Below are positions 5,731 through 19,652 of a DNA stretch of 24,000 nt, in pieces. How positions within the stretch are numbered: the first letter of the stretch is position 1; the number at the start of each line of letters is the position of its first letter. The notes beneath the pieces were generated by a model that was given only the letters and a program-made list of their open reading frames with translations, searched no databases and was not told where the DNA came from. A program made the translations under genes and the position numbers. Source of the stretch: Puniceicoccaceae bacterium (GTDB lineage Bacteria > Verrucomicrobiota > Verrucomicrobiia > Opitutales > Puniceicoccaceae). Location of the stretch: contig DAISIK010000001.1 of assembly GCA_036822055.1 (NCBI GenBank), positions 66,989 to 90,988 of the forward strand, written 5' to 3'.

Positions 5731-5742
5731 CTGATCTCCCCT

Positions 5743-6795
5743 ATGCCCAAACTGGATTACTCAGCCGCTGGCGTTGATATCGATGCCGGAAACCGGACTG
5801 TCGAGCTCATCAAACAAACCGTTGCCCGCACCCACCGACCGCAGGTTCTCGCAGGGATCGGCAGTTTTGGTTCCTTCTTTGACCTCTCTGCCCTGCTCCA
5901 ACAATACCGCCGACCAGTCATGGTCCAGAGCATTGACGGAGTCGGTACCAAGGTCACGGTTGCCAGAATGGCCCAGAGCTACCGCAGCCTCGGGCACGAT
6001 GTCGTTAGCGCTTGTTGTAACGACATCATCGTCCACGGAGCCGCTCCACTCACCTTTCTCGATTACATCGCCAACCAGAAGCTTGTCCCCGAGGTGGTCG
6101 CCGAAATCGTTTCAGGCATGGCCGAAGCATGCCTCGAAAATGGCATCTCTTTGGTAGGGGGAGAGACCGCCGAAATGCCCTCCACCTACCAGCCTTCCGA
6201 ACACGATCTCGTTGGCGTCATCACCGGAGTTGTCGAATATGAGAAAATCATCGATGGACGGGCGGTTCTTCCCGGTCAGGCCGTCATCGGGATCCACTCA
6301 AGCGGACTGCACACCAATGGCTACTCTTTAGCGCGGAAGGTATTTTTCGAGGTTGGCAACTTTTCCCTCGAAACCGTCCTCCCCGAGCTCGGGGCACCCT
6401 TGGGCGAAGTCCTCCTCAGGCCTCACCTCAATTACACCCGGCCAATCCACGCCCTCCTCGAAAAGGATTTCCCGATCACCTCGATCGCTCACATTACTGG
6501 TGGTGGCTTGCTGGAAAACATCCCTCGCGTTCTCCCCCCGCAGACCCGTGTCGAGCTCGACCTCTCCTCTTGGCAAGTTCCGCCGGTTTTTCAATTGATC
6601 GGCCAACTTGCCCAACTCGAACCCTCAGATCTTTTTCGAACCTTCAACATGGGGATCGGGATGACCGTCATTTGTCCCCCCGAGACCGCTCCGTCGGCCA
6701 TCTCCGCCATTGAGAACAGTGGTCCCTTTACCGCCAGCCTGATTGGAAAAACCGCCTCTGGAAACCGGGAAGTCAGGCTCCTCCCTCAAGCTTAG
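5743..6795 (+). CDS. purM: Phosphoribosylformylglycinamidine cyclo-ligase (AIR synthetase) PurM
   Basis: 350 aa. YSAAGVDIDAGN, SIDGVGTKV, GGETAEMP, HITGGGLLENIPRVLP are typical PurM motifs. Confidence 0.95.
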   Translation: MPKLDYSAAGVDIDAGNRTVELIKQTVARTHRPQVLAGIGSFGSFFDLSALLQQYRRPVMVQSIDGVGTKVTVARMAQSYRSLGHDVVSACCNDIIVHGAAPLTFLDYIANQKLVPEVVAEIVSGMAEACLENGISLVGGETAEMPSTYQPSEHDLVGVITGVVEYEKIIDGRAVLPGQAVIGIHSSGLHTNGYSLARKVFFEVGNFSLETVLPELGAPLGEVLLRPHLNYTRPIHALLEKDFPITSIAHITGGGLLENIPRVLPPQTRVELDLSSWQVPPVFQLIGQLAQLEPSDLFRTFNMGIGMTVICPPETAPSAISAIENSGPFTASLIGKTASGNREVRLLPQA

Positions 6796-6805
6796 GACGA
6801 CGCCC

Positions 6806-8074
6806 ATGTTTCGCATCGCCATCATTGTTTTTCCCGGGAGTAATTGCGAGACCGAGTCTGCCGCCGCCATCCGCCGGGCCGGCATGGAGCCGGTTGAGTT
6901 CCTCTGGAACGGTCCCACTGAAACCCTGCAATCCTGCGACGGGTTTTTCCTCGTCGGCGGTTTTTCCTACGAGGACCGCTCTCGTGCCGGCATCATTGCC
7001 TCCCTCGACCCCGTCATCCAAACCATTCGCGATGCCGCCGATTCAGGGAAACCCGTTCTCGGAATCTGCAACGGTGCCCAGATTCTCGTCGAGACCGGTA
7101 TCGTCCCCGGCACCGGGTCGATCTCCGCAGCCCTCGCTGCCAACCAGAGGCTTCACCGCGGTCAGGTCGTTGGTCACGGTTTTTTCAATACATGGGTGAA
7201 CCTAGGGCTGGCCTGCCCGCCCCCTGCCTGCGCCTTCACCCGTCTCTTTCCTCCACAGACCAACCTGAGTGTCCCTATCGCCCACGCCGAAGGGCGCTTT
7301 GTCCTGCCTCCCGATCTTCTCCCGCTCCTCGAGGCCAACCAGCAGGTCGTTTTCCGCTACGTCGATTCAGCTGGCCACCCGGACCCCGCCTTTCCGACCA
7401 ACCCAAACGGCAGCGTTGCCAACATCGCTGCCCTGTCCAACCACCGGGGCAACGCGCTCGCCATCATGCCGCACCCCGAGCGCACCGCCGCCGGGGATCT
7501 TCTCTTCACTTCTCTTCGCGACTATCTCGAAGCTGGCTCCCCCACCCGAGACGGTGAGCTTCAGTGGCAGCCAGCTCCTGCCAGCGAGCCCCTGGCGTGG
7601 GTTCCCCAACCTCGGGAAACCCTCCTTCCCATCCATCTGATCATCACTGATAACGTCGCCGATTCGGTCGAACGCGCCCTGCAAAATCGGGGCTTTTCCC
7701 TATCCGTGGAGCGCCAGGTCGTCTGGGGCCTTCAAATCGATCCCAGCCTCCACCAAGTCACCCTCGACCAGATTCATTCCTCCGGAGTCCTCTACAACTC
7801 CAACAAGGAATATCCTGTCACCAGTCCCTTTGCCCCGTCTTCCGACCATCAGGCAGTCCTCATCAGCGAACCAATGCTCGACGTAGAAGCCCTCCGACGC
7901 TACCAAAACCTGCAGTCCCATTTCTCCATTCCCGGCCTTCAGGCACTTTCCCGCCGCACCTTTTGGAGACTATCCTTTCCCCAACCGGTAGATCCCCAAA
8001 CCCTCTTCGAAATCGCCCTCACCCACATCTTTCACAACCCAGTTTCCGATAAGCTTTTCCGCCTCGCGCCTTGA
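6806..8074 (+). CDS. purQ: FGAM synthase glutaminase subunit PurQ with a C-terminal extension of about 150 aa resembling two tandem PurS modules
   Basis: The track ORF starts at 6743 inside purM. The ATG at 6806 lies 10 nt after the purM stop and gives MFRIAIIVFPGSNCE. PurQ core: nucleophile Cys in GICNGAQ, HAEGRF, MPHPER. After a Pro-rich linker, residues ~273-422 read as two PurS-like repeats (see findings). Confidence 0.9.
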   Translation: MFRIAIIVFPGSNCETESAAAIRRAGMEPVEFLWNGPTETLQSCDGFFLVGGFSYEDRSRAGIIASLDPVIQTIRDAADSGKPVLGICNGAQILVETGIVPGTGSISAALAANQRLHRGQVVGHGFFNTWVNLGLACPPPACAFTRLFPPQTNLSVPIAHAEGRFVLPPDLLPLLEANQQVVFRYVDSAGHPDPAFPTNPNGSVANIAALSNHRGNALAIMPHPERTAAGDLLFTSLRDYLEAGSPTRDGELQWQPAPASEPLAWVPQPRETLLPIHLIITDNVADSVERALQNRGFSLSVERQVVWGLQIDPSLHQVTLDQIHSSGVLYNSNKEYPVTSPFAPSSDHQAVLISEPMLDVEALRRYQNLQSHFSIPGLQALSRRTFWRLSFPQPVDPQTLFEIALTHIFHNPVSDKLFRLAP

Positions 8075-9042
8075 AACCGTCGCTAAACTCCCTCCGTCCC
8101 CATCTCGCCGGAACCCTTGACCGCACTCACCTGAGGACTCCCGTCCTTCGAGGAAAGGTGCGCGACCTCTACCCCCTCGGGGAGGAAGTCCTCTTCATCT
8201 GCACCGATCGGCTGACTGGCTTCGATCGCTTCCTCACCCGTATCCCGCTCAAAGGCAGCATCCTTAATCAAACCAGTAGCTGGTGGTTTTCACAGACCGA
8301 GCACCTCATCCCCAACCACTTCCTCCACTCCCCCGCCCCCGCTGCCACCGTCGCCCGCCGGTGCGAAATGCTTCCCCTCGAGTTTGTCGTGCGCGGTTAC
8401 CTCACTGGCACTACCGATACTTCCCTCTGGACCCATTACGCCAAGGGAATTCGGCGGTACTGCGACCAATCGATTCCCGATGGCCTCCGAAAGAATGATC
8501 CCCTTCCCGTCCCCATTCTCACCCCCACCACCAAATCCAAGGACCATGACCGACCCATCGGCGAGGCTGAGATCCTCTCCTCTGGCCTCATCTCTCCCGC
8601 CGATTGGGAGGTAGCCAGCTCCGCCGCCCTCGCCCTCTTCCGATTTGGCTCGGAAGTCGCCGCCGAGCGCGGTCTTGTTCTCGTCGATACCAAATACGAG
8701 TTCGGGAAACTTCCCGATGGCACCATCATTCTGGCCGACGAAATCCACACTCCCGATTCCAGTCGGTACTGGATCGCTTCCACCCTCGAAGAACGCCTCT
8801 CCCAGGGTCTCGAGCCGGAGAATATCGACAAGGAAATCATCCGCCTTTGGTATCGCGAACACTGCGATCCCTACGTTGATGTGAACCTGCCAAAACTCCC
8901 TGACGAACTGATTCTCGAGCTGTCTGCCCGCTACCTCCAGCTCTTCGCCATGATCACCGGGCAACCCTTTCCCCTGCCAGCTCCGACTCAGGATCCCGAA
9001 GCGGTCCTCGCCGCCACCCTCCGTGCCCAAAATATCCTCTAG
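8071..9042 (+). CDS. purC: Phosphoribosylaminoimidazole-succinocarboxamide (SAICAR) synthase PurC, long form
   Basis: 323 aa. TTG start forms a TTGA overlap with the purQ stop, and it is the only standard start upstream of the conserved RGKVRDLY. Motifs TDRLTGFD and LVLVDTKYEFG. Confidence 0.9.
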   Translation: MKPSLNSLRPHLAGTLDRTHLRTPVLRGKVRDLYPLGEEVLFICTDRLTGFDRFLTRIPLKGSILNQTSSWWFSQTEHLIPNHFLHSPAPAATVARRCEMLPLEFVVRGYLTGTTDTSLWTHYAKGIRRYCDQSIPDGLRKNDPLPVPILTPTTKSKDHDRPIGEAEILSSGLISPADWEVASSAALALFRFGSEVAAERGLVLVDTKYEFGKLPDGTIILADEIHTPDSSRYWIASTLEERLSQGLEPENIDKEIIRLWYREHCDPYVDVNLPKLPDELILELSARYLQLFAMITGQPFPLPAPTQDPEAVLAATLRAQNIL

Positions 9043-9118
9043 GCCCTGGAGCCCCTAATCCACTCCCCAGGTTGGCCCTTACCCCTCCAGCCAGCCCGCT
9101 CCCTACCCGATACCCATC

Positions 9119-11041
9119 ATGAGTGAACCCATCAAACACGAATGCGGCCTGGCTATCATCCGCCTCCGCCAACCCCTCGAGTACTATTACGAGAAGTACG
9201 GCACCCCTCTTTGGGGATTCTACAAACTCTTCCTCCTCATGGAGAAACAACACAACCGGGGACAGGATGGTGCAGGGGTGGGGGCCGTCAAACTCGGAGT
9301 CTCCCCCGGCCAGGCCTTCATGTTCCGCGAACGAAGCATCAAATCCAACCCCCTCGACCGAATCTTCAAGAGGCTGCTCGGAGACTACGAACGAAAGGTC
9401 TCCAGCGGAGACATTCATCCAGAATTTATCTCAACGGTTCGCGAGAATTTCGATTTTGCCGCCGAGGCCCTCATCGGTCACCTGCGCTACGCCACCAGCG
9501 GAGGCTACAATCAAGGTGCTTGTCACCCCTACACCAGGCGCAGCAACTGGCCCACCCGCAACCTCATGCTCGCCGGGAACTTCAACATGACCAACACCCC
9601 CAGCCTCAACCAACGTTTGATTGAGCGCGGCCAGCACCCTATTTTTGGCACTGATACCCAGACCATTCTCGAGGAAATTGGTTTCCATCTCGACGAGGAA
9701 CACGATCGCCTGTATCATTATTTCCGAGACGTCGAGGGGCTTGAGGGTGTGGCCAACAGCGCCCGCATTGCCAGAGAACTTCGCATCGAAAACATCATTC
9801 GCCCCGCCTCAGCTTCCTGGGATGGCGGCTACGCCATTGGCGGCCTTACTGGTAGCGGCGAGGCCTTTGCCACCCGCGACCCCTGGGGTATCCGCCCGCT
9901 CCACTACTTTATCGACTCGGAGGTCGTTGCCATCGCCTCCGAACGCGCTCCCCTCATGACGGTTTTCGACCGCAAGGTCTCGGAAGTGGAAGAGATTCCG
10001 CCCGGTCAATGCCTAATCATTGACCGAGCGGCCGAAACCCGATTTGCCACCGTCCGTCCACCCCAGGCCAAATCCAGCTGTACCTTCGAGCGGATCTACT
10101 TCTCCCGCGGCAACGACCCCGAAATCTACGCCGAACGCAAGCGCCTCGGCGCCGCCCTCGTTCCCCGGGTCATCGAGTCTATCGGAGACAACTTCGAGGA
10201 TGTCGTCTTTTCGTACATCCCCAATACAGCCGAGATTGCCTACTACGGCTTCATGCAGCAAATCCGTTCCTACCGCCGCCGACAGGTCAAAGAGGAGATC
10301 CTCCAGGCAGCCGCCGAGAATCGGATCAGCCCAGAGCTGCTCGATCGGGTGATTATGGGCTCCTGGCCAATCTCCGAGAAGGTTGCCCATAAAGACATCA
10401 AACTTCGCACCTTCATCACTCAGGAGAAAGAACGCACCCACCTCGCCTCCCACGTCTACGACATCTCCTACGGAACCGTTGAGCCCGGACAAACCCTCGT
10501 CTGTCTCGACGACTCCATCGTTCGCGGCACTACCCTCCGCCGATCCATCATCCAAATCCTCTCCCGACTCAAGCCGCGGCACATCCTCATCGCCTCCACT
10601 GCTCCCCAGATCCGCTACCCCGATTGCTACGGGATCGACATGTCCCAACTCGGCAAGTTCATCGCCTTTCAAGCGGCCGTCGCCCTCCATCAGGTTGCGG
10701 GACACAGTCACATCCTCTCCGAGATCTACGAAGCTTGCCTTGCCCAGCAGGATCAACCCCTCGACCAACCGATTCCCAACCAGGTACGGAGACTCTACTC
10801 CTCGTTCTCCGAAGCCCAGATCTCAGCCAAGGTCGCCGAGCTCATCACCCCCGAGATTCCCGACTGGGACGGCCGGGTCTCCATCCTTTACCAAACCATT
10901 CCCGACCTCCTCTCCGCCCTGCCCGAACACACCGGCTCGTGGTATTTCACCGGAGAGTACCCCACCCCCGGAGGCTTTCACGCCCTCAACAACGCCTTCA
11001 TCAATTTTTACGAGAACCGCATCTCGGCCCGTAGCTATTGA
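9119..11041 (+). CDS. purF: Amidophosphoribosyltransferase PurF, long (~640 aa) form
   Basis: N-terminal MSEPIKHECGLAIIRL places the Ntn-hydrolase Cys at position 9, implying a short propeptide. Also MEKQHNRGQDGAG and the PRPP-binding loop LVCLDDSIVRGTT. Confidence 0.93.
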   Translation: MSEPIKHECGLAIIRLRQPLEYYYEKYGTPLWGFYKLFLLMEKQHNRGQDGAGVGAVKLGVSPGQAFMFRERSIKSNPLDRIFKRLLGDYERKVSSGDIHPEFISTVRENFDFAAEALIGHLRYATSGGYNQGACHPYTRRSNWPTRNLMLAGNFNMTNTPSLNQRLIERGQHPIFGTDTQTILEEIGFHLDEEHDRLYHYFRDVEGLEGVANSARIARELRIENIIRPASASWDGGYAIGGLTGSGEAFATRDPWGIRPLHYFIDSEVVAIASERAPLMTVFDRKVSEVEEIPPGQCLIIDRAAETRFATVRPPQAKSSCTFERIYFSRGNDPEIYAERKRLGAALVPRVIESIGDNFEDVVFSYIPNTAEIAYYGFMQQIRSYRRRQVKEEILQAAAENRISPELLDRVIMGSWPISEKVAHKDIKLRTFITQEKERTHLASHVYDISYGTVEPGQTLVCLDDSIVRGTTLRRSIIQILSRLKPRHILIASTAPQIRYPDCYGIDMSQLGKFIAFQAAVALHQVAGHSHILSEIYEACLAQQDQPLDQPIPNQVRRLYSSFSEAQISAKVAELITPEIPDWDGRVSILYQTIPDLLSALPEHTGSWYFTGEYPTPGGFHALNNAFINFYENRISARSY

Positions 11042-12145: not shown

Positions 12146-12865
12146 CTATTCCCGATCCTCTCTCCAATCCCGAGACCTCGTCGAGGGTATCGCTTCGCCT
12201 CCACGCACCATCGCCTGCAGCTGATCACCTTCCGCGCGTTGGAGGTCGATCACCACGTCCCAGCCGAAGGACTCCGACTCCCGCCCACCCATCTTCAAAT
12301 ACAATGTCTGGTCAGAGAAAAAACCGGTCTCCAGCGGATAGTCTCCCTCCCGCCCCTTCAGCCGACTGATCTCGCCCGCGGCCAGAGCGTTCATGAACCG
12401 GGCATTCTGCTCATCGGCTCGCACCCCTGCCATCCTTGGATTTCCCGACAACTTCGCTTGATAGACCACCAAAACCGAGCCTGCGGCAACGTCCACTACC
12501 GCCAGATCAATCTCACCGAGAGTTCTTCCGGACTGATTGAAGTATTGCACCCTCGCCACCACCTCGTATCGGGGAGCGGGGAAACGCTTTTTCAACTCCA
12601 CGAAACCCAATGCCTCGAGAACCGAACCCACCTTACCATAGTCAAAATTCAAACCCCGGATTGCCTCAGCATATCTATTCAGCAGCCTCTCCCGGTCTGC
12701 CTCAGCAGGCATCACAAACTGGGCTCGCTGGAGGGTTTCCTCGGGTGATTCGCTGCGGTCGACCGCCTCCTTCCCACAACCCGAGATCAGGAGACTAGCT
12801 ACCACCACCATCACGAGTGCCAACCAACGGCCGGAGTCCCTCCGCATTAGTTCAAAGCTTTTCAT
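12146..12865 (-). CDS. Hypothetical lipoprotein with a PD-(D/E)xK / Mrr-catalytic-like core motif
   Basis: 239 aa. N-terminus MKSFELMRRDSGRWLALVMVVVASLLISG|C is a lipoprotein signal with lipobox ISGC. The central part reads VLEALGFVEL...GEIDLAVVD...VLVVYQAKL. Lies 62 nt upstream of obg on the same strand. Confidence 0.6.
   Translation of the reverse strand: MKSFELMRRDSGRWLALVMVVVASLLISGCGKEAVDRSESPEETLQRAQFVMPAEADRERLLNRYAEAIRGLNFDYGKVGSVLEALGFVELKKRFPAPRYEVVARVQYFNQSGRTLGEIDLAVVDVAAGSVLVVYQAKLSGNPRMAGVRADEQNARFMNALAAGEISRLKGREGDYPLETGFFSDQTLYLKMGGRESESFGWDVVIDLQRAEGDQLQAMVRGGEAIPSTRSRDWREDRE
12779..12865 (-). other. Lipoprotein (SPase II) signal peptide coding segment
   Basis: Basic n-region (RR..R), hydrophobic LALVMVVVASLL, and lipobox I-S-G-C with Cys at residue 30. 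Confidence 0.6.
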
Positions 12866-13000: not shown

Positions 13001-13078
13001 ATGATCCGTTCACTCCTAATCCTCAAGGGCCTCCTCGCCTCCTCCATCCTTTCCACCCTCCCTCAAGTTACCTTGGCC
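13001..13078 (+). other. Putative Sec signal peptide of the MTAP-like protein
   Basis: n-region with R3/K9, hydrophobic core LLASSILSTL, and a c-region V-T-L-A followed by SEPP. Caveat: an in-frame TTG at 13073 could give a signal-less protein. Confidence 0.5.
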
Positions 13079-13963
13079 TCTGAACCCCCGCGCGATCCTT
13101 CCATCTTTATTGCCGTCGTCGGCGGCACCACCTTCGGTACGCCCGAAAAGTTTGGCGACGGTCTCGTCGAGAAAGAAGGCGAGTTTTCCTTCCAGACCAA
13201 GGCTGGACCCAGCCCGATAATCTATCGGATGCGGTATAAAGAGGTACCATTTTATTACATTCCAATCTACGGCATGGATTCCCGGAAACCCGGCGACCCT
13301 GAGTACGCCTACCACCTCCGGACCTGGACTGCCCTGTACGAGCTCGGCGTCACCCACGCCCTCAGTGGAGCCACTGCTGGCGGCATCAAACCAGAGTACG
13401 ACTACGATGACATTTTCTTAATCGACGACTTCATGGAGTTTCGCACCTCGCGCCCAAACAATGTTCTCGAACTATCCGGCCATCAACGCCCTGGCATCTT
13501 CCCAAACTTCGAAGCTCCCATCAGTCCCTCACTGCATCAGCTCCTCGTCGAAGAGTCGCATAAAAAGGCCAGTCAGGGATACTCCGGGAAGATTTATCCC
13601 AATGGAGTGTTCTTTCAGTTTGCACCAGGTCGTTTCGAAAGTCCGGCCGAAATTCGGGCTATGGCTCAGTTGGGAGCCGACATCACCAGCATGAATCAGG
13701 CAACCTGCATCATCTATGCTCGTCAGTTCGGCATCCGTTTCGCCTCCATTTGCTCGGTCTCCAATCCAGCTGTCGGGGTGCGACCCTTCACCTTTGAGGA
13801 AATGCAACAGAGTGTCCAAAGGATCGCCGCCTTTGCTGTCCCTGTTGTTCTAGAGGTTATTGCTCGCATCCCGGAGGAGGCCATGCAACCAGAGCCCAGC
13901 AGCACCGGCGACACTTTTGAGGGCTCCTACCTTAACCCCGAAGGAGAGACCACCGATGGCTGA
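13001..13963 (+). CDS. MTAP / purine nucleoside phosphorylase family (PNP_UDP_1)-like protein with N-terminal signal peptide and divergent active-site motifs
   Basis: 320 aa. By eye it is collinear with 5'-methylthioadenosine phosphorylase: FIAVVGGTT, TKAGPSP, WTALYELGVTHALSGATAGG, DDIFLIDDFMEFRTSRP, APGRFESPAEIRAMAQLGADITSMN, IRFASICSVSN. The N-terminus MIRSLLILKGLLASSILSTLPQVTLA|SE is Sec-signal-like. Confidence 0.7.
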   Translation: MIRSLLILKGLLASSILSTLPQVTLASEPPRDPSIFIAVVGGTTFGTPEKFGDGLVEKEGEFSFQTKAGPSPIIYRMRYKEVPFYYIPIYGMDSRKPGDPEYAYHLRTWTALYELGVTHALSGATAGGIKPEYDYDDIFLIDDFMEFRTSRPNNVLELSGHQRPGIFPNFEAPISPSLHQLLVEESHKKASQGYSGKIYPNGVFFQFAPGRFESPAEIRAMAQLGADITSMNQATCIIYARQFGIRFASICSVSNPAVGVRPFTFEEMQQSVQRIAAFAVPVVLEVIARIPEEAMQPEPSSTGDTFEGSYLNPEGETTDG

Positions 13964-14072
13964 TTCCAAAACAAAATCCTCTCCCCAGCGCCGAAGGTTT
14001 CTCAAACAGAGCCTTTCCACCGTCCTTGGAGTCGGCTTTCTCAGCCATGCTAGCCGTTCCCCGGCCATCGCC
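13956..14072 (+). other. Putative Tat signal peptide (RRRFLK motif)
   Basis: MADSKTKSSPQRRRFLKQSLSTVLGVGFLSHASRSPAIA. This is a near-consensus S/T-R-R-x-F-L-K motif, a moderately hydrophobic h-region, and AxA-like sites (SHA or AIA). Confidence 0.7.
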
Positions 14073-15560
14073 TCGACCCCCGCGTCAGCTCCCCCGGTCC
14101 CGGATATCGAGTCTCTTCCGCCCCTCCACCTCACCAGTCCTCTAACCAAATCGCCCTCTCGCTCAATCGCCGATCATTTTGAATCAATCAAGAGTTCGGG
14201 AGATCACGTCGCACTCTACAAGTTTCTCTACGCCCTCCCCAAAGGCGGAGACATTCACCACCACCTCGGCGGGGGTTTTCTCGCCCGCCGCTGGTACGCC
14301 ATCGCCACCGACCAAAGGCGCAATGGCGGACAAACCTTCTACACCCGCTGCCGTATCTCCCGCCCGGTCGAGTTCCCACTCCCTGCTCCCCTCAACCGGC
14401 CTCACCTCCACTTTTGGCTCACCCTCAACCAAGCTGAGTTCGATAAACTCTCCAGCGATCAAAAAACCGATTTCAAACCCCTGCAGGACCTCGATGATGA
14501 TGAGCGGGAGGCTTGGATCTCCTCGGTCAAACTCGATCGCCCGGGCGAGGGCCGGGATGAGTTTTTTGAATACATCTGGGGACGGCTCAACAACCTCCTT
14601 TTCAGCATCCACGTCTGCTCCGAGCTCGTGGTTGAGAACATGCAGCTACTCGGTGCCGAGGGCGTTCGTTACCTTGAGCTGATGACCTTCTACTCCCTTT
14701 GGCGTGACGAAAAGGGAACCATTCTTCCGGCCTCCGTGGCTGACCAATTCTGGAGGCACCGCCTTGCCCAACCCGACGCCCGGGCCACCGGGGTACTCGT
14801 TAAATTCAAGGCCGTCATCCTCCGTTTTGCTCCAGATGCGATTGAACGTGCCGAGCAGCACTTCGTCCATATCGATGCCAACCGCGACCTCTGGGTGGGC
14901 GTCGATATGGCCGGGCGGGAAGACGATAATCGAGGTTACCCGCGCCGCTTTACCGAGGTCTTTGATCGAATGCTCCGAAAATACCCGGAGATCAATATCT
15001 CCATCCACGCGGGCGAAGCAGAAAAGGCAGACCGCAACATCTTCGAGTCTCTCCGCCTCGGAGCGCATCGGATCGGCCACGCCATCAACCTGCTTCACGA
15101 CGAGCAGACCATGCAAATGATGCGCAACAATCGCCACCTCCTCGAAATCAATCTCGTCAGCAACCACCTGCTCGGTTACGTGCCAGATCCTGCCCTCCAC
15201 CCCTTCCCGATCTACCTTCGCCAAGGCATTCCCTGCTGCCTCAATACAGATGATCGAGGGATGTGGGATTCCAATATGACCGACGAGTACTTTCTCGCCG
15301 TCAGCCAGTTTAACCTCTCGTGGACTGAGCTGGTCCAGCTTGCTCGCAACAGCATCGAACACGCTTTCATCAGTCAGAGTGAGCGCGCCACTATTTCGCG
15401 GAGCTACGAATCCGCCCTCGAAACCTTTGCCAACTCCTACACTCGTTTCGATCCACCTTCACTCCTCGAATCAACCCCCGCCGAAACTTACGGCTATGGG
15501 CGCAAACACCTCGGTCTGGCTCGACTCGCCCGGACCCTTCCTCATTCAGGGAGTCTGTGA
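13956..15560 (+). CDS. Adenosine deaminase family protein, ADA2/ADGF (CECR1)-like, with twin-arginine (Tat) signal
   Basis: The track ORF starts at 13860. I place the start at the ATG at 13956, which overlaps the upstream stop by 8 nt (ATGGCTGA). 534 aa. Tat motif QRRRFLKQS followed by a hydrophobic stretch. Deaminase motifs all present: LPKGGDIHHHLGG, GVDMAGRED, SIHAGEAE, HRIGHAINL, CLNTDDRGMW. The long insert after the first His motif matches the ADA2 architecture. Confidence 0.8.
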   Translation: MADSKTKSSPQRRRFLKQSLSTVLGVGFLSHASRSPAIASTPASAPPVPDIESLPPLHLTSPLTKSPSRSIADHFESIKSSGDHVALYKFLYALPKGGDIHHHLGGGFLARRWYAIATDQRRNGGQTFYTRCRISRPVEFPLPAPLNRPHLHFWLTLNQAEFDKLSSDQKTDFKPLQDLDDDEREAWISSVKLDRPGEGRDEFFEYIWGRLNNLLFSIHVCSELVVENMQLLGAEGVRYLELMTFYSLWRDEKGTILPASVADQFWRHRLAQPDARATGVLVKFKAVILRFAPDAIERAEQHFVHIDANRDLWVGVDMAGREDDNRGYPRRFTEVFDRMLRKYPEINISIHAGEAEKADRNIFESLRLGAHRIGHAINLLHDEQTMQMMRNNRHLLEINLVSNHLLGYVPDPALHPFPIYLRQGIPCCLNTDDRGMWDSNMTDEYFLAVSQFNLSWTELVQLARNSIEHAFISQSERATISRSYESALETFANSYTRFDPPSLLESTPAETYGYGRKHLGLARLARTLPHSGSL

Positions 15561-15622
15561 GGTCTAATCAGCCTCCTCAACCAGATGATCTGCTTCGAGT
15601 AACCTGCTCGGATAACGCTCTC

Positions 15623-16540
15623 TCACCGAGACTCTTCAAGAGCCCTCAGCGTGATCATCCAGTCCTTCCCGTAGCTGATCCCAAACACCTCCGCGAAGCT
15701 CTCCATGTTGAGAGCCAGACTTACCTTGAGCAGGCTGTTCAGGTATAAAAGAGGTTCTCCTTCTGGCACATCTCCAAAGGTTGCCACGTATGGAACCTCC
15801 CCTGCGTAACGTTTCTCATCCTTAAAATGGATCTCAACCTGCAAGCGACCGCCCCGGTCAACACCGAGCTGCTCCAAAAGGTTCCCCTCAATATTGGTCC
15901 AGACGTTGCCATACCTCACGTCGAGGTTCATCACCGTGCCCCGGATCTCTCCCAAGGCTCCATCAAGGTGGGCCCGTTCGTGAGCCAAACTTTCAACACC
16001 CTCGAGCTGACCCCCGACATCCTCGAATCGGATCTGTCCGCTGGCCAATAAAGCTCCCGTGTAGGCATAGACATCCCTCCCGTGAAAGGTGTACGACTGC
16101 TCCGAATTTTCCCTGCGATTGACCGCCTCATCAATTTCCCGGACCTCCGCCACCCCCATCTCTTCAGCCACGAAGGTTAGCGTCCCGTTATCGGGAGTTA
16201 CAAAGAAGTGCCCCGTTTCAGTTTTCAGGACGACCGACTTTCGGTCTGTCCCAACCCCGGGATCCACCACCGAGACAAAAACTGTTCCCTCCGGCCAATA
16301 GGGAGCCGTCTGCTTCAGAACCAGAGCTGCGATCCAAATATCGTAGGGAGGAATCTCATGCGACAGATCAAAAAGGTCGATCTCTTGGGACACCCCATAA
16401 GCCACTCCCTGCATTGCCGATACAGCACCATCGCCCAGACCGAAGTCCGATTGAAAGACCAGCGCTCGCCCTTCGGCCAACGCCACCTGAATCGTCAAAG
16501 CCAGTACAGAATAGAACCTCCAATTAAGCATTTTTCCCAC
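15623..16540 (-). CDS. SAM hydroxide adenosyltransferase / SAM hydrolase family (DUF62, PF01887) with N-terminal signal peptide
   Basis: 305 aa from GTG 16540. The ATG at 16531 (MLNWRF...) is the more likely start. Family motifs: FQSDFGLGDG, VSVVDPGVGTDRK, TPDNGTL, YTFHGRDVYAYTGA, YGNVWTNI. The Asp/Arg/His residues of the hydrolase-type triad appear to be present. Confidence 0.85.
   Translation of the reverse strand: MGKMLNWRFYSVLALTIQVALAEGRALVFQSDFGLGDGAVSAMQGVAYGVSQEIDLFDLSHEIPPYDIWIAALVLKQTAPYWPEGTVFVSVVDPGVGTDRKSVVLKTETGHFFVTPDNGTLTFVAEEMGVAEVREIDEAVNRRENSEQSYTFHGRDVYAYTGALLASGQIRFEDVGGQLEGVESLAHERAHLDGALGEIRGTVMNLDVRYGNVWTNIEGNLLEQLGVDRGGRLQVEIHFKDEKRYAGEVPYVATFGDVPEGEPLLYLNSLLKVSLALNMESFAEVFGISYGKDWMITLRALEESR
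16475..16540 (-). other. Putative Sec signal peptide of the DUF62 protein
   Basis: (MGK)MLNWRFYSVLALTIQVALA|EGRALVFQSDFG. It has a basic n-region, a 13-residue hydrophobic core and an A-L-A cleavage motif. The conserved domain begins only about 5 residues after the predicted cleavage site, and no standard alternative start lies downstream. Confidence 0.55.
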
Positions 16541-16559: not shown

Positions 16560-16587
16560 ATTTTACATTTGATTCCATGCTTGAGAA
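16560..16587 (-). promoter_or_regulatory. Candidate sigma70-like promoter for the DUF62 gene (-35 TTCTCA, 16 nt spacer, -10 TAAAAT on the - strand)
   Basis: On the minus strand, TTCTCA (plus 16582-16587), a 16-nt spacer, then TAAAAT (plus 16560-16565), 20-29 nt upstream of the start codons. This lies in the most AT-rich stretch of the window, the divergent gap to the ABC gene. Confidence 0.25.
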
Positions 16588-17270
16588 CCAATGCTAAAAG
16601 AGAACCCTTGCCTTCGTTGAACACTTCATCTCCAGACTCACTCGTGCTCGATTCCCTCGCCGTTCACTACCTGAACGAGAGTCCTGCCTCGCAAAGCCAC
16701 CGTTCCGATATCTGGGGACAAACCGTCGAACTCGTTCCCCACACTTTCGCCCTCGTTGTCGCTCCTTCCGGCACTGGTAAAACCACCCTCGTCCACTGCC
16801 TTTCGGGGGTCATCACCCCGGATCAGGGGACCATTTCCCTCGGGGGAGAAATCCTCCCACCTCCGGGGTCGCCATTCTGGTCCGAACTGCGCTCTCGAAA
16901 AATTTCCACCGCATATCAGAACCTCAACCTGATTCCGGAGCTCACTGGCACCGAAAACCTGCGCCTCGCCCCCTTTCTCGACCGCGACCCGATGGCCTTT
17001 GCCGATCGCCTCGGCATCGGCAAACGCCTCCACGCCCGCGTCAATCAGCTCTCCACTGGCCAACGCCAGCGTCTCTCCCTCTGCCGCAGTCTCGCCCGCC
17101 CCTATTCACTCCTCATCCTCGACGAACCGTTCAGTCACCTCGACGATCGATCGGCCGCCCTCGCTGCTGAGCTGATCGAAGAAGAGGCTGCCTCGCGCGC
17201 GGCCATCGTCCTCTGCACGGCCCTCTCCCAACGATGTCCCCTCAGCTGGGATCAGACCCTCCACCTGTGA
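16569..17270 (+). CDS. ABC transporter ATP-binding protein (MacB/LolD/FtsE-like class)
   Basis: Walker A APSGTGKTT, Q-loop YQNLNLIPELT, signature LSTGQRQRL, Walker B LLILDEP, D-loop SHLD. The start is uncertain. 16569 is a TTG, and in-frame TTG 16617 or GTG 16644 would give a more typical N-terminus (SLVLDSLAVHY). Confidence 0.85.
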   Translation: MIPCLRTNAKREPLPSLNTSSPDSLVLDSLAVHYLNESPASQSHRSDIWGQTVELVPHTFALVVAPSGTGKTTLVHCLSGVITPDQGTISLGGEILPPPGSPFWSELRSRKISTAYQNLNLIPELTGTENLRLAPFLDRDPMAFADRLGIGKRLHARVNQLSTGQRQRLSLCRSLARPYSLLILDEPFSHLDDRSAALAAELIEEEAASRAAIVLCTALSQRCPLSWDQTLHL

Positions 17271-18496
17271 AGTCCATCCCCCGCTCCCTCCCCCTCCGGC
17301 GGCTTTTTGCCCGCTCCGGAGGTCCCATCCAAAAGCTCTTTGCCTGGCTTGGAGTCCTCTCCGGGCTCTCCATTCTCCTCGTCTCCATCCACCTCTACCT
17401 GGAATTCCTCCGCTTCACCACCGCCGGAAACGAGTGGATCAGTTCCCGATATCTGATCATTCAAAAAACCGTCACCGTCCGGGATTCCTTCTCCCAGGGA
17501 CGCGCAACCTTTAGTGAAGAAGAGATCGATCACCTCGGCAGCTTCCCTTCCGTTACCGGGATCGCCCGCTTCCGTTCCAATTCCTTTCCGGCCGGCATCC
17601 AGATCGGTGGAGGCATCTTTCCGGAATTTTTCTCCTACGTCTTCCTCGAATCTGTCCCCGATGCTTTTGTCGACGCACCGGCCAAAGGCTGGTCCTTTGA
17701 CCCTAAGAAAAACGAGATTCCCGTTCTCATCCCCAGCGAGTACCTCAACCTCTACAACTTCGGCTTTGCCCCCTCCCAGGGATTGCCCCAAATCCCCCCC
17801 TCCATGGTCCATCGGGTTCCCTTCAGTGTTCTCTTTTTTCTCGACGATCAAACCCTCCGCTTCTCCGGCCGGATCGTCGGCTTCAGTGATCGAATCAATA
17901 GTATCCTTGTTCCTGATACTTTTCTCGAGTCGATCAATCTTCGCGCCTCCCCCGGAAGCCCCCCTTCTCCCCCCGCACGCCTCCTCCTCGAAGTCGCCGA
18001 CAGCCCCGACCCCGACCTCCTCACCCTTCTCGAATCACCCGGTTACAGCCTCAACCGGGAGGCCCTTTCCGGGGGTCAGATTCGCCGCCTCGCCCACCGG
18101 GTTGCCTTCGCCCTTCTCTCCCTCGGCAGTGGGGTCGTTGTCCTCGGGGTACTCGTCGTTCTCCTCGCCCTCGAACGACAGCTGGAACAATCCCGGTCAC
18201 GCATTCACACGGTTTTCCTTCTCGGCCATCATCCCCGTCATTTGATTGCTTTTTTCCAACGTCGTCTCGCCCTCTTTGTCCTCGGCGCCGTCCTCTTCGC
18301 CTACATCATCCACCGCTACACGGGCCGCCAGCTTGAGGAGGTCTTCAACCGCACTGGTGAGTTTTCCGGCTTTCTCGCCACCCGCCCGGAAATTGACCTG
18401 CTTGCTGCAGGCTCCGCAATCACACTTCTCCTGTGGACAGCCATCCGTATCCGCCTTAGCATCTGGTCTTTCTTCCGCAATACCCTTCCTTCATGA
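17234..18496 (+). CDS. FtsX/MacB-like ABC transporter permease (4 TM with a large periplasmic domain)
   Basis: 420 aa. TM1 is LFAWLGVLSGLSILLVSIHLYL, followed by a hydrophilic domain of about 230 aa, then three C-terminal TM segments (VAFALLSLGSGVVVLGVLVVLLAL, LALFVLGAVLFAYII, LLAAGSAITLLLWTAI). The start is ATG 17234 (37-nt overlap) or GTG 17267 (GTGA overlap with the ATPase stop). Confidence 0.65.
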   Translation: MSPQLGSDPPPVKSIPRSLPLRRLFARSGGPIQKLFAWLGVLSGLSILLVSIHLYLEFLRFTTAGNEWISSRYLIIQKTVTVRDSFSQGRATFSEEEIDHLGSFPSVTGIARFRSNSFPAGIQIGGGIFPEFFSYVFLESVPDAFVDAPAKGWSFDPKKNEIPVLIPSEYLNLYNFGFAPSQGLPQIPPSMVHRVPFSVLFFLDDQTLRFSGRIVGFSDRINSILVPDTFLESINLRASPGSPPSPPARLLLEVADSPDPDLLTLLESPGYSLNREALSGGQIRRLAHRVAFALLSLGSGVVVLGVLVVLLALERQLEQSRSRIHTVFLLGHHPRHLIAFFQRRLALFVLGAVLFAYIIHRYTGRQLEEVFNRTGEFSGFLATRPEIDLLAAGSAITLLLWTAIRIRLSIWSFFRNTLPS

Positions 18497-19251
18497 GCCG
18501 CCCTCCTCTTCTCCTCGGAGTCAATATCGACCACAGCGCCACCCTCCGTCAGGCCCGCTACCGGGAGGAGGCCACCAGCTGCGGAAGGTACATCGAGCCC
18601 GATCCGCTTGCCATCGCCCTCGCCGCCGAGGCCGCCGGCGCCGACGGCATCACCGTTCACCTGCGCGAGGATCGGCGCCATATCGTCGACCGGGACATCG
18701 CCCGCATCAGGGAGTCCATCGCCACCCGCATGAACCTCGAAATGGCCTGTACCGAGGAAATGACCAACATTGCCATCCAGACCCGTCCAGACAGCGCCTG
18801 CCTCGTTCCGGAAAACCGGGCCGAGGTAACCACCGAGGGTGGACTCGACTGCGTTCAGCAATTCGCCCGTGTCTCCCAAACCACCAAGGCGCTTCAGGAC
18901 TCCGGCATCGCGGTCAGCTTGTTCATTGATCCCGATCTGGATCAAATCGCCGCTGCAGTTTCCCTCGGCGCCTCCATGGTTGAGTTTCACACCGGCTCCT
19001 ACGCCCATGCCTGGTTCGACCCCACAGAGCGTCGCTCCGAGCTTCAGCGCCTCCGTCAGGCTTGCTCAGCAGCTGCCGCTCAGGGACTCGTCGTCAATGC
19101 AGGGCACGGAATCAACTACATCAATATTGGGGAAATCCTCGAACTCCCCCACCTCCATGAACTCAATATCGGTCACGCCATCATCAGCCGGGCTCTCCTC
19201 ACTGGCATCGGGGAGGCCGTGCGCGAGATGAAACACAGGATGAACCGTTGA
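18493..19251 (+). CDS. pdxJ: Pyridoxine 5'-phosphate synthase PdxJ
   Basis: 252 aa. LLGVNIDHSATLRQAR, GITVHLREDRRHI, RMNLEMA, CLVPENRAEVTTEGGLD, VNAGHG, HELNIGHAII. ATGA overlap with the permease stop. Confidence 0.95.
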   Translation: MSRPPLLLGVNIDHSATLRQARYREEATSCGRYIEPDPLAIALAAEAAGADGITVHLREDRRHIVDRDIARIRESIATRMNLEMACTEEMTNIAIQTRPDSACLVPENRAEVTTEGGLDCVQQFARVSQTTKALQDSGIAVSLFIDPDLDQIAAAVSLGASMVEFHTGSYAHAWFDPTERRSELQRLRQACSAAAAQGLVVNAGHGINYINIGEILELPHLHELNIGHAIISRALLTGIGEAVREMKHRMNR

Positions 19252-19652
19252 ATCTGCCGCCCTCGCTCCCGCCCCACGTTCCTGGCATCGGGCTCGATCT
19301 GATCGAGATCTCCAGAATCCAATCCGCCCATCGGCGCCATGGTGAAGCCTTTCTCCATCGCATCTTCACCGAGGAAGAGATCGCCTACTGCCTCGCCATC
19401 CGCAATCCCTACCCATCCCTGGCTGCCCGTTTCGCTGCCAAGGAGGCCATTGCCAAAGCCCTCGGAACCGGGATCTCCAGCCGCTTCGGGTGGAAATCCG
19501 CCTCCGTTCACCACCATCCTGGAGGCGCTCCCGGCGTCCGCCTGGACCATGCCACTACCCAGCTCCTGGCCTCCCTAAACGCTCGCTCGGTTCGTCTCTC
19601 CCTCACCCATACCAGCACTACCGCGTCCGCCGTGGCCATCCTTCAGCAATAG
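19248..19652 (+). CDS. acpS: Holo-[acyl-carrier-protein] synthase AcpS
   Basis: 134 aa with a TTG start forming a TTGA overlap with the pdxJ stop. GIGLDLIEISRI, IFTEEEIAYC, ARFAAKEAIAKALGTG. pdxJ-acpS adjacency is a well-known conserved pair. Confidence 0.9.
   Translation: MNLPPSLPPHVPGIGLDLIEISRIQSAHRRHGEAFLHRIFTEEEIAYCLAIRNPYPSLAARFAAKEAIAKALGTGISSRFGWKSASVHHHPGGAPGVRLDHATTQLLASLNARSVRLSLTHTSTTASAVAILQQ

Follow-up and report, generated by a model that had tools for sequence, protein, structure and literature searches.

A PNP-fold and ADA2-like enzyme pair next to a DUF62 protein, all three predicted to be exported: a candidate extracytoplasmic purine nucleoside scavenging locus in a marine Puniceicoccaceae bacterium

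Organization of the locus

Three neighbouring genes were analysed in a 24,000-nt stretch of DNA (the window) from a marine Puniceicoccaceae bacterium (Opitutales, Verrucomicrobiota). They encode a PNP/MTAP-fold nucleoside-cleaving enzyme (gene a), an ADA2/ADGF-like adenosine deaminase (gene b) and a DUF62 enzyme of the S-adenosylmethionine (SAM) hydrolase type (gene c), all predicted to be exported. Enzymes of these kinds are usually found inside the cell. The window matched the Puniceicoccaceae metagenome-assembled genome GCA_050330715.1 (contig JBHJNO010000014.1), and a PNP-like protein with an identical amino-acid sequence was also encoded on two Logan contigs. The three open reading frames, the 8-nt overlap and the convergent spacer of the initial annotation were all present, and the features of the locus were as follows (a slash marks the predicted cleavage site).

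13001..13963, plus strand: gene a, predicted exported PNP/MTAP-fold (NP-I, trimeric type) nucleoside-cleaving enzyme, 320 aa
13001..13078, plus strand: predicted Sec-type signal peptide of gene a, MIRSLLILKGLLASSILSTLPQVTLA/SE, preceding the conserved core IFIAVVGGT
13956..13963, plus strand: a/b overlap of 8 nt, ATGGCTGA, with the gene a stop and the gene b start, read directly
13956..15560, plus strand: gene b, predicted exported ADA2/ADGF-like adenosine deaminase, 534 aa from ATG
13956..14072, plus strand: predicted signal of gene b of the twin-arginine translocation (Tat) type (QRRRFLK, h-region, AIA/S), followed by a Pro/Ser/Ala-rich linker
15561..15622, no strand: convergent b/c spacer of 62 nt, read directly
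15623..16531, minus strand: gene c, predicted exported DUF62 SAM hydrolase-type enzyme, 302 aa from ATG
16475..16531, minus strand: predicted Sec-type signal peptide of gene c, MLNWRFYSVLALTIQVALA/EG

A Shine-Dalgarno-like GGAGAG was located upstream of the gene b ATG, and translational coupling of genes a and b through their overlap is likely. Gene c has an alternative GTG start at 16540. In the 62-nt spacer between b and c, a promoter and terminator scan and folding gave nothing above shuffled controls; neither a terminator-like site nor a significant fold (z=-0.04) was present.

Gene a was matched by Pfam PF01048 (PNP_UDP_1; E=2.9e-17, 63.3 bits against a gathering cut-off of 25.1). Gene b was matched by PF00962 (A_deaminase; E=1.9e-34, 119.7 bits), and gene c by both SAM_HAT_N (PF01887; E=1.2e-51, 174.8 bits) and SAM_HAT_C (PF20257; E=3.6e-21, 75.7 bits), all above their gathering thresholds. 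The domains expected from the initial annotation were thus recovered in the case of PF01048, PF00962 and PF01887, whereas PF08451, the ADGF-specific N-terminal domain, gave no match in gene b at E≤0.01. Since all three proteins scored far under every NCBIfam equivalog cut-off, each is, as judged from its sequence, a divergent member of its family.

Conserved export signals

Export was examined through the conservation of the N-terminal segment ahead of the catalytic core in the best 120 homologs of each protein. A segment was counted as signal-like when, ahead of the core, at least 8 residues with a mean Kyte-Doolittle value of at least 1.6 lay within a stretch of 10 or more uncharged residues. 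The 120 closest DUF62 homologs shared 56–100% identity and were from Opitutales, Chitinophagaceae, Siphonobacter and Pasteurellaceae.

In the solved cytoplasmic relatives, the catalytic core begins about 20–25 residues nearer the N-terminus. Residue 34 of the PNP-like protein was aligned with residue 9 of human MTAP, and residues 24–26 of the DUF62 protein were aligned with residues 4–6 of 2zbu, SalL and PH0463. A signal-like segment preceded the core in 100 of 112 PNP-like homologs, 108 of 119 ADA-like homologs and 114 of 120 DUF62 homologs. The sequences of these segments were variable in all three families, while their layout was kept, with basic residues at the start, then a hydrophobic stretch, and small residues at positions -3 and -1. 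In the AlphaFold2 (AF2) model of protein a, a helix at residues 2–17 was followed by a low-confidence linker and then by the confident core. No in-frame ATG was found between the hydrophobic segment and the core in a, b or c.

In Tat substrates, the motif S/T-R-R-x-F-L-K is accompanied by an h-region of moderate hydrophobicity and a cleavage site of the AxA type. The N-terminus of the gene b product, MADSKTKSSPQRRRFLKQSLSTVLGVGFLSHASRSPAIA/S, showed the corresponding features at the sequence level, with QRRRFLK, the h-region SLSTVLGVGFLS and then AIA/S. The Tat motif RR-x-[F/L] was present in 88 of the 119 ADA-like homologs, and the more distant ones (~469 aa) carried Sec-type signals. Such a swap of signal type with retention of export is hard to account for unless the destination is under selection.

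The apparent exceptions mostly had very short called N-termini. Two of the 12 PNP-like homologs that lacked a signal as called were checked, and both proved to be start-codon miscalls: an upstream start restored MKNHRFITSILSFLAAMSSVFA/QQ in the Coraliomargarita parva protein (P0007) and MTPITPLRLLFFSFVLIWGVQA/APPP in P0004. The Kyte-Doolittle score of the first 45 residues alone did not separate the exported from the cytoplasmic proteins of the window. Because this crude score does not discriminate, the argument for export rests on the extension ahead of the core and on its conservation.

On these grounds all three proteins are very probably exported at least across the inner membrane, and we infer their localization outside the cytoplasm. 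The earlier proposal that the three enzymes carry export signals was therefore upheld at the sequence level, with signal-like segments in about 90% of the homologs of each family.

The PNP/MTAP-fold protein

The AF2 model of protein a had a predicted local distance difference test score (pLDDT) of 84.9. When it was compared with the PDB by using Foldseek, human MTAP, Planctomyces PNP I, S. tokodaii MTAP and P. aeruginosa MTIP (PDB code 3ozb) were matched with E-values of ~1e-17 and ~20% identity. Among the 50 matches listed, the template modelling score (TM-score) was 0.54–0.69 when normalized by the query and at most 0.85 when normalized by the target. According to the model, protein a is a member of the trimeric PNP/MTAP (NP-I) fold. 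The scores against the named families were 70.2 bits for TIGR01694 (MTAP; cut-off 274.85), 67.1 bits for NF006054 (PNP; cut-off 218) and 54.6 bits for NF006599 (MTIP; cut-off 223), all below the respective cut-offs.

Residues Glu213, Asn255, Tyr90 and Gly91 were invariant in 120 homologs. The segments RFE213 and SN255PAVG were aligned with "yEtpae" and "vtNmaag" of T. maritima PNP (PDB code 1vmk), whereas human MTAP carries Ser and Asp at the positions of Glu213 and Asn255. We take these two residues to be the equivalents of E201 and N243 of human PNP, which contact N1-H and O6/N7 of the 6-oxopurine base. The base-binding residues predicted for protein a are of the 6-oxopurine PNP type, which favours inosine, guanosine or methylthioinosine (MTI) as the substrate and suggests that protein a probably acts after deamination.

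The phosphate site was different. The canonical Arg-His dyad, which is R60-H61 in human MTAP, lies within "PRHG" in archaeal MTAP and is R84/H86 in PNP, was replaced by Ile89-Tyr90 in protein a (Pro-Ile-Tyr-Gly). The dyad positions were [M/I/F/L/V]-Tyr in all 120 PNP-like homologs, and residue 88 was Arg in 86 and Pro in 32 of them. Because the dyad is missing, phosphorolysis by protein a is not assured, and the enzyme may be a phosphorylase or a hydrolase. The earlier label of phosphorylase thus became uncertain.

A conserved C-terminal tail, PEPxSTGExFxGSYxxPD, was observed in the PNP-like clade (13856–13963; columns ~320–345 of alignment A1). It lay outside the alignments to solved MTAP and PNP structures and was modelled with a pLDDT of ~47–61. 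By analogy with the C-terminus of MTAP, this tail might enter the active site of the neighbouring subunit.

The ADA2/ADGF-like deaminase

Residues 72–492 of the gene b product were aligned with positions 55–475 of the 479 positions of TIGR01431 (adm_rel) with an E-value of 7e-25; the score of 87.7 bits was below the cut-off of 315. The Zn-binding and catalytic motifs, DIH101HH103, H351AGE354, RIGH375 and NTD432D433, were kept in at least 118 of 120 homologs. The best solved relatives included bacterial adenosine deaminases (ADAs), the ADGF-type adenosine monophosphate (AMP) deaminase of Helix pomatia and human ADA2, and the homologs are labelled "adenosine deaminase CECR1" by JGI. Adenosine, AMP or another adenosine modified at the 5' position may be its substrate.

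The DUF62 hydrolase-type protein

Residues Asp90, Arg97 and His150 of the gene c product were aligned with the D, R and H of 2zbu, while in the chlorinase SalL these positions are occupied by Tyr, Thr and Tyr. The SDFG ribose motif was retained, and the DUF62 motifs were present in at least 118 of 120 homologs. By these sequence features, gene c encodes a hydrolase-type DUF62 protein, and a halogenase (chlorinase or fluorinase) role was ruled out by the hydrolase triad. Known DUF62 hydrolases convert SAM to adenosine and methionine. Gene c scored 137 bits against NF058624 ((R)-SAM hydrolase; cut-off 350) and 103.9 bits against NF053629 (cut-off 470), below both cut-offs.

Some members of the family carry unrelated names. 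Several exported DUF62 proteins of Pasteurellaceae (P0129, P0145, P0207 and P0216) and PDB entry 7ccg are annotated as "DNA-directed RNA polymerase subunit delta" or "acetolactate synthase", apparently through propagated misannotation.

Gene neighbourhoods in related genomes

The three closest relatives of the locus on usable contigs, L093, L087 and L088, showed identities of 83, 79 and 76%, respectively. The PNP-like and ADA2-like genes were adjacent in all three, with an overlap of 8 nt in L087 and 11 nt in L093 and a gap of 41 nt in L088. A gene for a TonB-dependent receptor was located directly upstream of the pair in each case, and the surroundings contained further purine genes, encoding xanthine dehydrogenase subunits, XdhC, adenine deaminase, a NUP-family protein and a cytoplasmic ADA.

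In L087 and L093, the position convergent to the ADA2-like gene, which is the slot occupied by the DUF62 gene in the window, was taken by a canonical adenosine deaminase that passed the TIGR01430 cut-off and carried a Tat signal (MLRRSFLATAALGG and MQRRAFLASTLLGG; L093 6263–7450 and L087 10646–11836, both on the minus strand). The export of two different adenosine deaminases by these relatives suggests that the ADA2-like one has a distinct substrate.

The pair was also found in a lineage from bog metagenomes (L098, L099 and L101), with 31–33% identity to b and a. Here, an ADA2-like gene with a Sec signal immediately preceded a PNP-like gene that carried a Tat signal (TRREAL...), so that both the gene order and the signal types were exchanged. 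In L099 (7948–10801), the ADA2-like protein had 537 aa and the PNP-like protein had 342 aa, with the Tat signal TRREALVLGIPGAALLATGA. The PNP-like proteins of this lineage retained the Glu and Asn residues, and in the L099 motif LPRYG the canonical phosphate position was an Arg. That exported ADA2-like and PNP-like proteins are paired across such a deep divergence is good evidence of functional coupling. The proposal that these two genes belong together was supported by this recurrence in L087, L088, L093 and the distant L099.

When genome contigs were scanned with a PNP-like profile, the results were swamped by canonical MTAP and PNP genes, and the pattern FE[TS][AP]AE[IV]RA was common to ordinary PNPs. 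Six true orthologs (L004–L009) were recovered, none of which had an ADA or DUF62 gene nearby. An Amidohydro_1 protein encoded immediately upstream of the PNP-like gene in L086 (Bacteroidota) was considered as a deaminase partner and rejected, as it was an exported Xaa-Pro-dipeptidase-like protein (NF051886).

For the DUF62 gene, the exported ortholog of Coraliomargarita parva (71% identity) headed a co-directional urate and allantoin catabolism array (L089 5641–14495). The DUF62 gene was followed by genes for a cupin, an EamA transporter, 2-oxo-4-hydroxy-4-carboxy-5-ureidoimidazoline (OHCU) decarboxylase, 5-hydroxyisourate (HIU) hydrolase (transthyretin-like), an M20 amidohydrolase, an Amidohydro_1 protein, an amidase, an SBF transporter and Cupin_5.

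A "SAM_HAT_C" protein in L093 was considered as a second DUF62 protein linked to the pair and was rejected, since it proved to be an exported alpha/beta-hydrolase in which only the C-terminal domain is SAM_HAT_C-like. This fusion of an alpha/beta-hydrolase with a SAM_HAT_C-like domain (PF20257, E=5e-8; ~370 aa) occurred in L093 (11077–12177, minus strand) and L087 (4233–5351, plus strand), where it clustered with the TonB receptor, PNP-like and ADA2-like genes. It had the signal MHHLPRLLLALLLPVLAASA/AP, a GDSMGG nucleophile elbow and a weak Hydrolase_4 match, and no NCBIfam family was found for it. The fusion may be an esterase for an adenosyl-containing compound.

Proposed pathway and alternatives

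The locus is interpreted as a putative extracytoplasmic (periplasmic or secreted) unit for purine-nucleoside scavenging and catabolism, with the DUF62 protein as a likely feeder; this reading is given a probability of roughly 0.55. Its conserved core would be a translationally coupled pair composed of a Tat-exported deaminase and a Sec-exported PNP/MTAP-fold enzyme. The deaminase would convert adenosine, and possibly 5'-substituted adenosines or AMP, to the inosine form with release of ammonia. The PNP-fold enzyme would then split the inosine-type nucleoside into hypoxanthine and ribose or ribose-1-phosphate, and the products would be imported for salvage or oxidation. In this species, the Sec-exported DUF62 protein would most likely feed the pair by producing adenosine and methionine from exogenous S-adenosylmethionine-type compounds. 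We infer the substrates and the reaction order.

Participation of the DUF62 protein in the same pathway is plausible rather than established, because adenosine, the known DUF62 product, is the substrate of the neighbouring deaminase. The two purine-related contexts, the slot in the window and the C. parva array, add weak support. A fuller version would be a complete periplasmic route from SAM or 5'-methylthioadenosine (MTA) through adenosine and inosine to hypoxanthine, harvesting nitrogen, sulfur, purine and ribose from dissolved metabolites. In it, exported DUF62 proteins would constitute a large, overlooked clade (Opitutales, Chitinophagaceae, Cytophagales and Pasteurellaceae) that acts on exogenous adenosyl-sulfonium compounds, and the one encoded here would work with the Tat-exported ADA2-like deaminase and a hitherto undescribed exported nucleosidase or phosphorylase of the PNP fold. 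This version is considered rather doubtful.

Several observations weigh against the proposed unit. Among all loci examined, the DUF62 gene adjoined the pair only in the species of the window, and in L087 and L093 its slot was held by the Tat-exported ADA, so that the three-gene module of the initial annotation was not supported. The exported DUF62 genes of Pasteurella testudinis, Chitinophaga agrisoli and another Opitutales contig had unrelated neighbours. PNP-like orthologs with 52–62% identity from other Opitutales and Bacteroidota stood alone with no deaminase nearby, as did the C. parva PNP-like ortholog (73% identical), and no TonB-dependent receptor was present within the window. The Arg-His dyad was missing across the PNP-like clade, with Pro at residue 88 in the subclade of the query. 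The sub-cut-off NCBIfam scores imply that the substrates of a, b and c may differ from those of the named families. Finally, 12 of 112 PNP-like homologs were signal-less as called, though both of those checked were miscalls.

The alternatives differ in which of these assumptions is given up. If the N-terminal segments were wrong starts or cytoplasmic membrane anchors, the enzymes would act in the cytoplasm; the segment was missing as called in 12 of 112 PNP-like, 6 of 120 DUF62 and 11 of 119 ADA-like homologs, and crude hydrophobicity did not set these N-termini apart from those of some cytoplasmic proteins of the window. This is very improbable, because the extensions precede the core, vary in sequence and keep the n-h-c layout in ~90% of homologs from several phyla, the near-consensus RRxFLK of the deaminase alternates with Sec signals across homologs, the checked exceptions were miscalls, and no ATG intervenes before the core. 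A different alternative keeps export and restricts the functional unit to the PNP-like and ADA2-like pair, the DUF62 protein being an unrelated exported neighbour with its own promoter and another periplasmic role. The restriction of the adjacency to a single species, the convergent and separately transcribed arrangement of the DUF62 gene, and the wide occurrence of exported DUF62 proteins in Chitinophagaceae and Pasteurellaceae without PNP or ADA neighbours all fit this explanation. However, the DUF62 slot in relatives is filled by another exported adenosine-metabolizing enzyme, the C. parva ortholog heads a purine-catabolic array, and the known product of the family is the substrate of the adjacent deaminase; a unit limited to the pair is regarded as possible, on the unlikely side.

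The remaining alternatives concern the chemistry of the pair. It might act on MTA, converting it to MTI and then to hypoxanthine and methylthioribose(-1-phosphate), as an exported analogue of the P. aeruginosa route that recovers a widespread exometabolite of the sea. MTAP was the best sequence match of protein a, its structural neighbours included MTAPs and MTIP 3ozb (target-normalized TM-score 0.85), and its 6-oxopurine-type residues would suit MTI as well as inosine. On the other hand, the score against the MTIP equivalog NF006599 was far from the cut-off (54.6 against 223 bits), the P. aeruginosa MTA deaminase belongs to another family (Amidohydro_1 type) while gene b is an ADA2-like A_deaminase, and the neighbourhoods, with xanthine dehydrogenase, adenine deaminase and the NUP-family protein, point to general purine catabolism. 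Although dissolved MTA has been measured in seawater (PMC9723752), MTA as the dedicated substrate is thus judged unlikely. A nucleosidase reaction is a possibility of less than even likelihood: protein a would be a nucleoside hydrolase with a base (hypoxanthine or guanine) and free ribose as its periplasmic products, much as MTA/S-adenosylhomocysteine nucleosidase (MTAN) arose within the same fold. The replacement of the Arg-His dyad by [R/P]-[M/I/F/L/V]-Tyr-Gly in all 120 homologs, as Pro-Ile-Tyr-Gly in the query, is in line with hydrolysis, and on general grounds the import of extracytoplasmic ribose-1-phosphate would be difficult. Borrelia also exports MTA nucleosidases (PMC7557402). Phosphorolysis is favoured instead by the retention of Thr43 (corresponding to Thr18 of MTAP) and of Ser/Thr at position 125, by Arg88 one position upstream in 86 of 120 homologs, and by the distant L099 homolog with Arg at the canonical position; the invariant residues R151 and R163 could also substitute for the dyad.

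Comparison with known systems

A secreted bacterial ADGF homolog that deaminates adenosine was reported by Skaldin et al. 2018 (Mol Biol Evol, doi 10.1093/molbev/msy193), as cited in PMC10358891. Gene b resembles this type of secreted ADGF/ADA2 deaminase in its length (534 aa), export signal, intact Zn and catalytic motifs and near-full-length TIGR01431 alignment. It appears to differ in its Tat signal with a Pro/Ser-rich linker, the sub-cut-off TIGR01431 score, the lack of a PF08451 match and its PNP-fold partner.

Gene a shares with the trimeric PNPs, MTAPs and P. aeruginosa MTIP the fold, the Thr of the GGT phosphate loop, the RFE...AE motif and the Asn of 6-oxopurine PNPs. In contrast to these proteins, it is predicted to be exported, has only ~20–25% identity to solved members, lacks the dyad and bears the extra C-terminal tail. 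The P. aeruginosa route, from MTA deaminase to MTI phosphorylase, follows the same logic of deamination before cleavage, and 3ozb was among the best structural matches to gene a. However, that route is cytoplasmic, and gene a scored below the MTIP equivalog cut-off.

MTAN is itself a member of the NP-I family. Bgp and MtnN of Borrelia burgdorferi are exported nucleosidases for MTA and S-adenosylhomocysteine (PMC7557402). They provide a precedent for the export of an adenosyl-nucleoside-cleaving enzyme of the same broad fold, by which a transportable purine base is freed outside the cell. They are, however, hexameric-type MTAN hydrolases that act on adenine nucleosides without a deaminase partner, in a host-dependent spirochete. 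In the rus polysaccharide utilization locus of Bacteroides thetaiotaomicron, ribose-containing nutrients are scavenged by a TonB-linked system with a nucleoside hydrolase (bioRxiv 10.1101/574913). The combination of a TonB importer with nucleoside-cleaving enzymes is comparable to the order TonB receptor, PNP-like, ADA2-like in L087, L088 and L093, whereas rus has a SusC/D pair, an IUNH-family nucleoside hydrolase and ribokinases, with no deaminase or PNP-fold enzyme.

Like the (R)-SAM hydrolases of the DUF62 family (PH0463 and the Salinispora SAM hydrolase), gene c has both Pfam domains, the SDFG motif and the Asp-Arg-His triad. Unlike gene c with its predicted Sec signal, the characterized members are taken as cytoplasmic housekeeping enzymes that remove (R)-SAM, and in recent work the enzymes were treated as intracellular (R)-SAM hydrolases with no mention of signals (bioRxiv 10.1101/2025.08.29.672840). 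The gene c clade is large and signal-bearing (Opitutales, Chitinophagaceae, Siphonobacter and Pasteurellaceae), and no publication on it was found; literature searches for exported or periplasmic DUF62 proteins or periplasmic PNP returned none that were relevant.

With a secreted ADGF-type deaminase already published, the deaminase component is less unusual than the earlier description suggested, and exported MTA nucleosidases are known from Borrelia; the earlier interpretation was supported in part. What appears to be new is a predicted exported PNP-fold clade whose phosphate site is altered and which recurs in a pair with ADA2-like deaminases, together with a large, predicted exported DUF62 clade.

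Adenosine and MTA have been measured as dissolved compounds in seawater (PMC9723752), and the harvest of these and related adenosyl compounds by heterotrophs is poorly mapped. If the proposed unit is real, marine Opitutales would convert adenosyl nucleosides to readily imported bases, ammonia and sugar before uptake, and in the relatives this conversion would take place downstream of a TonB-dependent receptor. Bacterial extracellular purine processing would then reach beyond nucleotidases and the published secreted ADGF-type deaminase, and an uncharacterized exported branch of the PNP/MTAP fold, altered at its phosphate site, would be established. The view of DUF62 proteins as purely cytoplasmic (R)-SAM "repair" hydrolases would also be challenged, and the exported DUF62 clade is present in the host-associated Pasteurellaceae as well. 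Cultured carriers, Coraliomargarita parva and Pelagicoccus species, make the idea directly testable.

Flanking genes and window context

A lipoprotein gene (12146–12865, minus strand) with the lipobox LLISG/C lies on one side of the locus. Its family of 147 cluster representatives had an invariant or near-invariant GExD...ExK pattern (G117, E118, D120, E136 and K138), with Gln136 in the query. The pattern is compatible with a PD-(D/E)xK nuclease. No Pfam, NCBIfam or PDB match was obtained for the query, either as a single sequence or as a 41-sequence profile; the sole Pfam or PDB match in the family was a weak one to DUF6602 in two members. The single-sequence AF2 model had a pLDDT of 37 and was unusable. 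The "nuclease fold" attributed to this protein was consequently matched by the motif pattern and received no backing from Pfam or the PDB.

On the other side (16569–19652, plus strand), genes for an ABC ATPase, an FtsX/PCD-like permease, pdxJ and acpS were chained by stop/start overlaps (37 nt and 4 nt), and the transporter pair appears to be co-transcribed with the housekeeping cofactor genes pdxJ and acpS. The lipoprotein and the ABC/FtsX transporter had been suggested as parts of the system; both were rejected as members, as they were absent beside the pair in L087, L088 and L093 and the ABC/FtsX genes overlap into pdxJ-acpS.

A purine de novo block (3394–11041, plus strand) was located just upstream of obg and the scavenging genes. 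It comprised parts of formylglycinamide ribonucleotide amidotransferase (FGAM synthase), an AIRS-domain protein, phosphoribosylaminoimidazole-succinocarboxamide (SAICAR) synthase and a 640-aa amidophosphoribosyltransferase-like glutamine amidotransferase (GATase). Genes for de novo purine synthesis thus lie beside those for putative purine scavenging.

Most genes of the window were on the plus strand, and its guanine-plus-cytosine (GC) content was 55–62%. The GC skew was strongly and uniformly negative over positions 1–24000, from -0.10 to -0.32 per kb (plus strand C-rich), with no switch.

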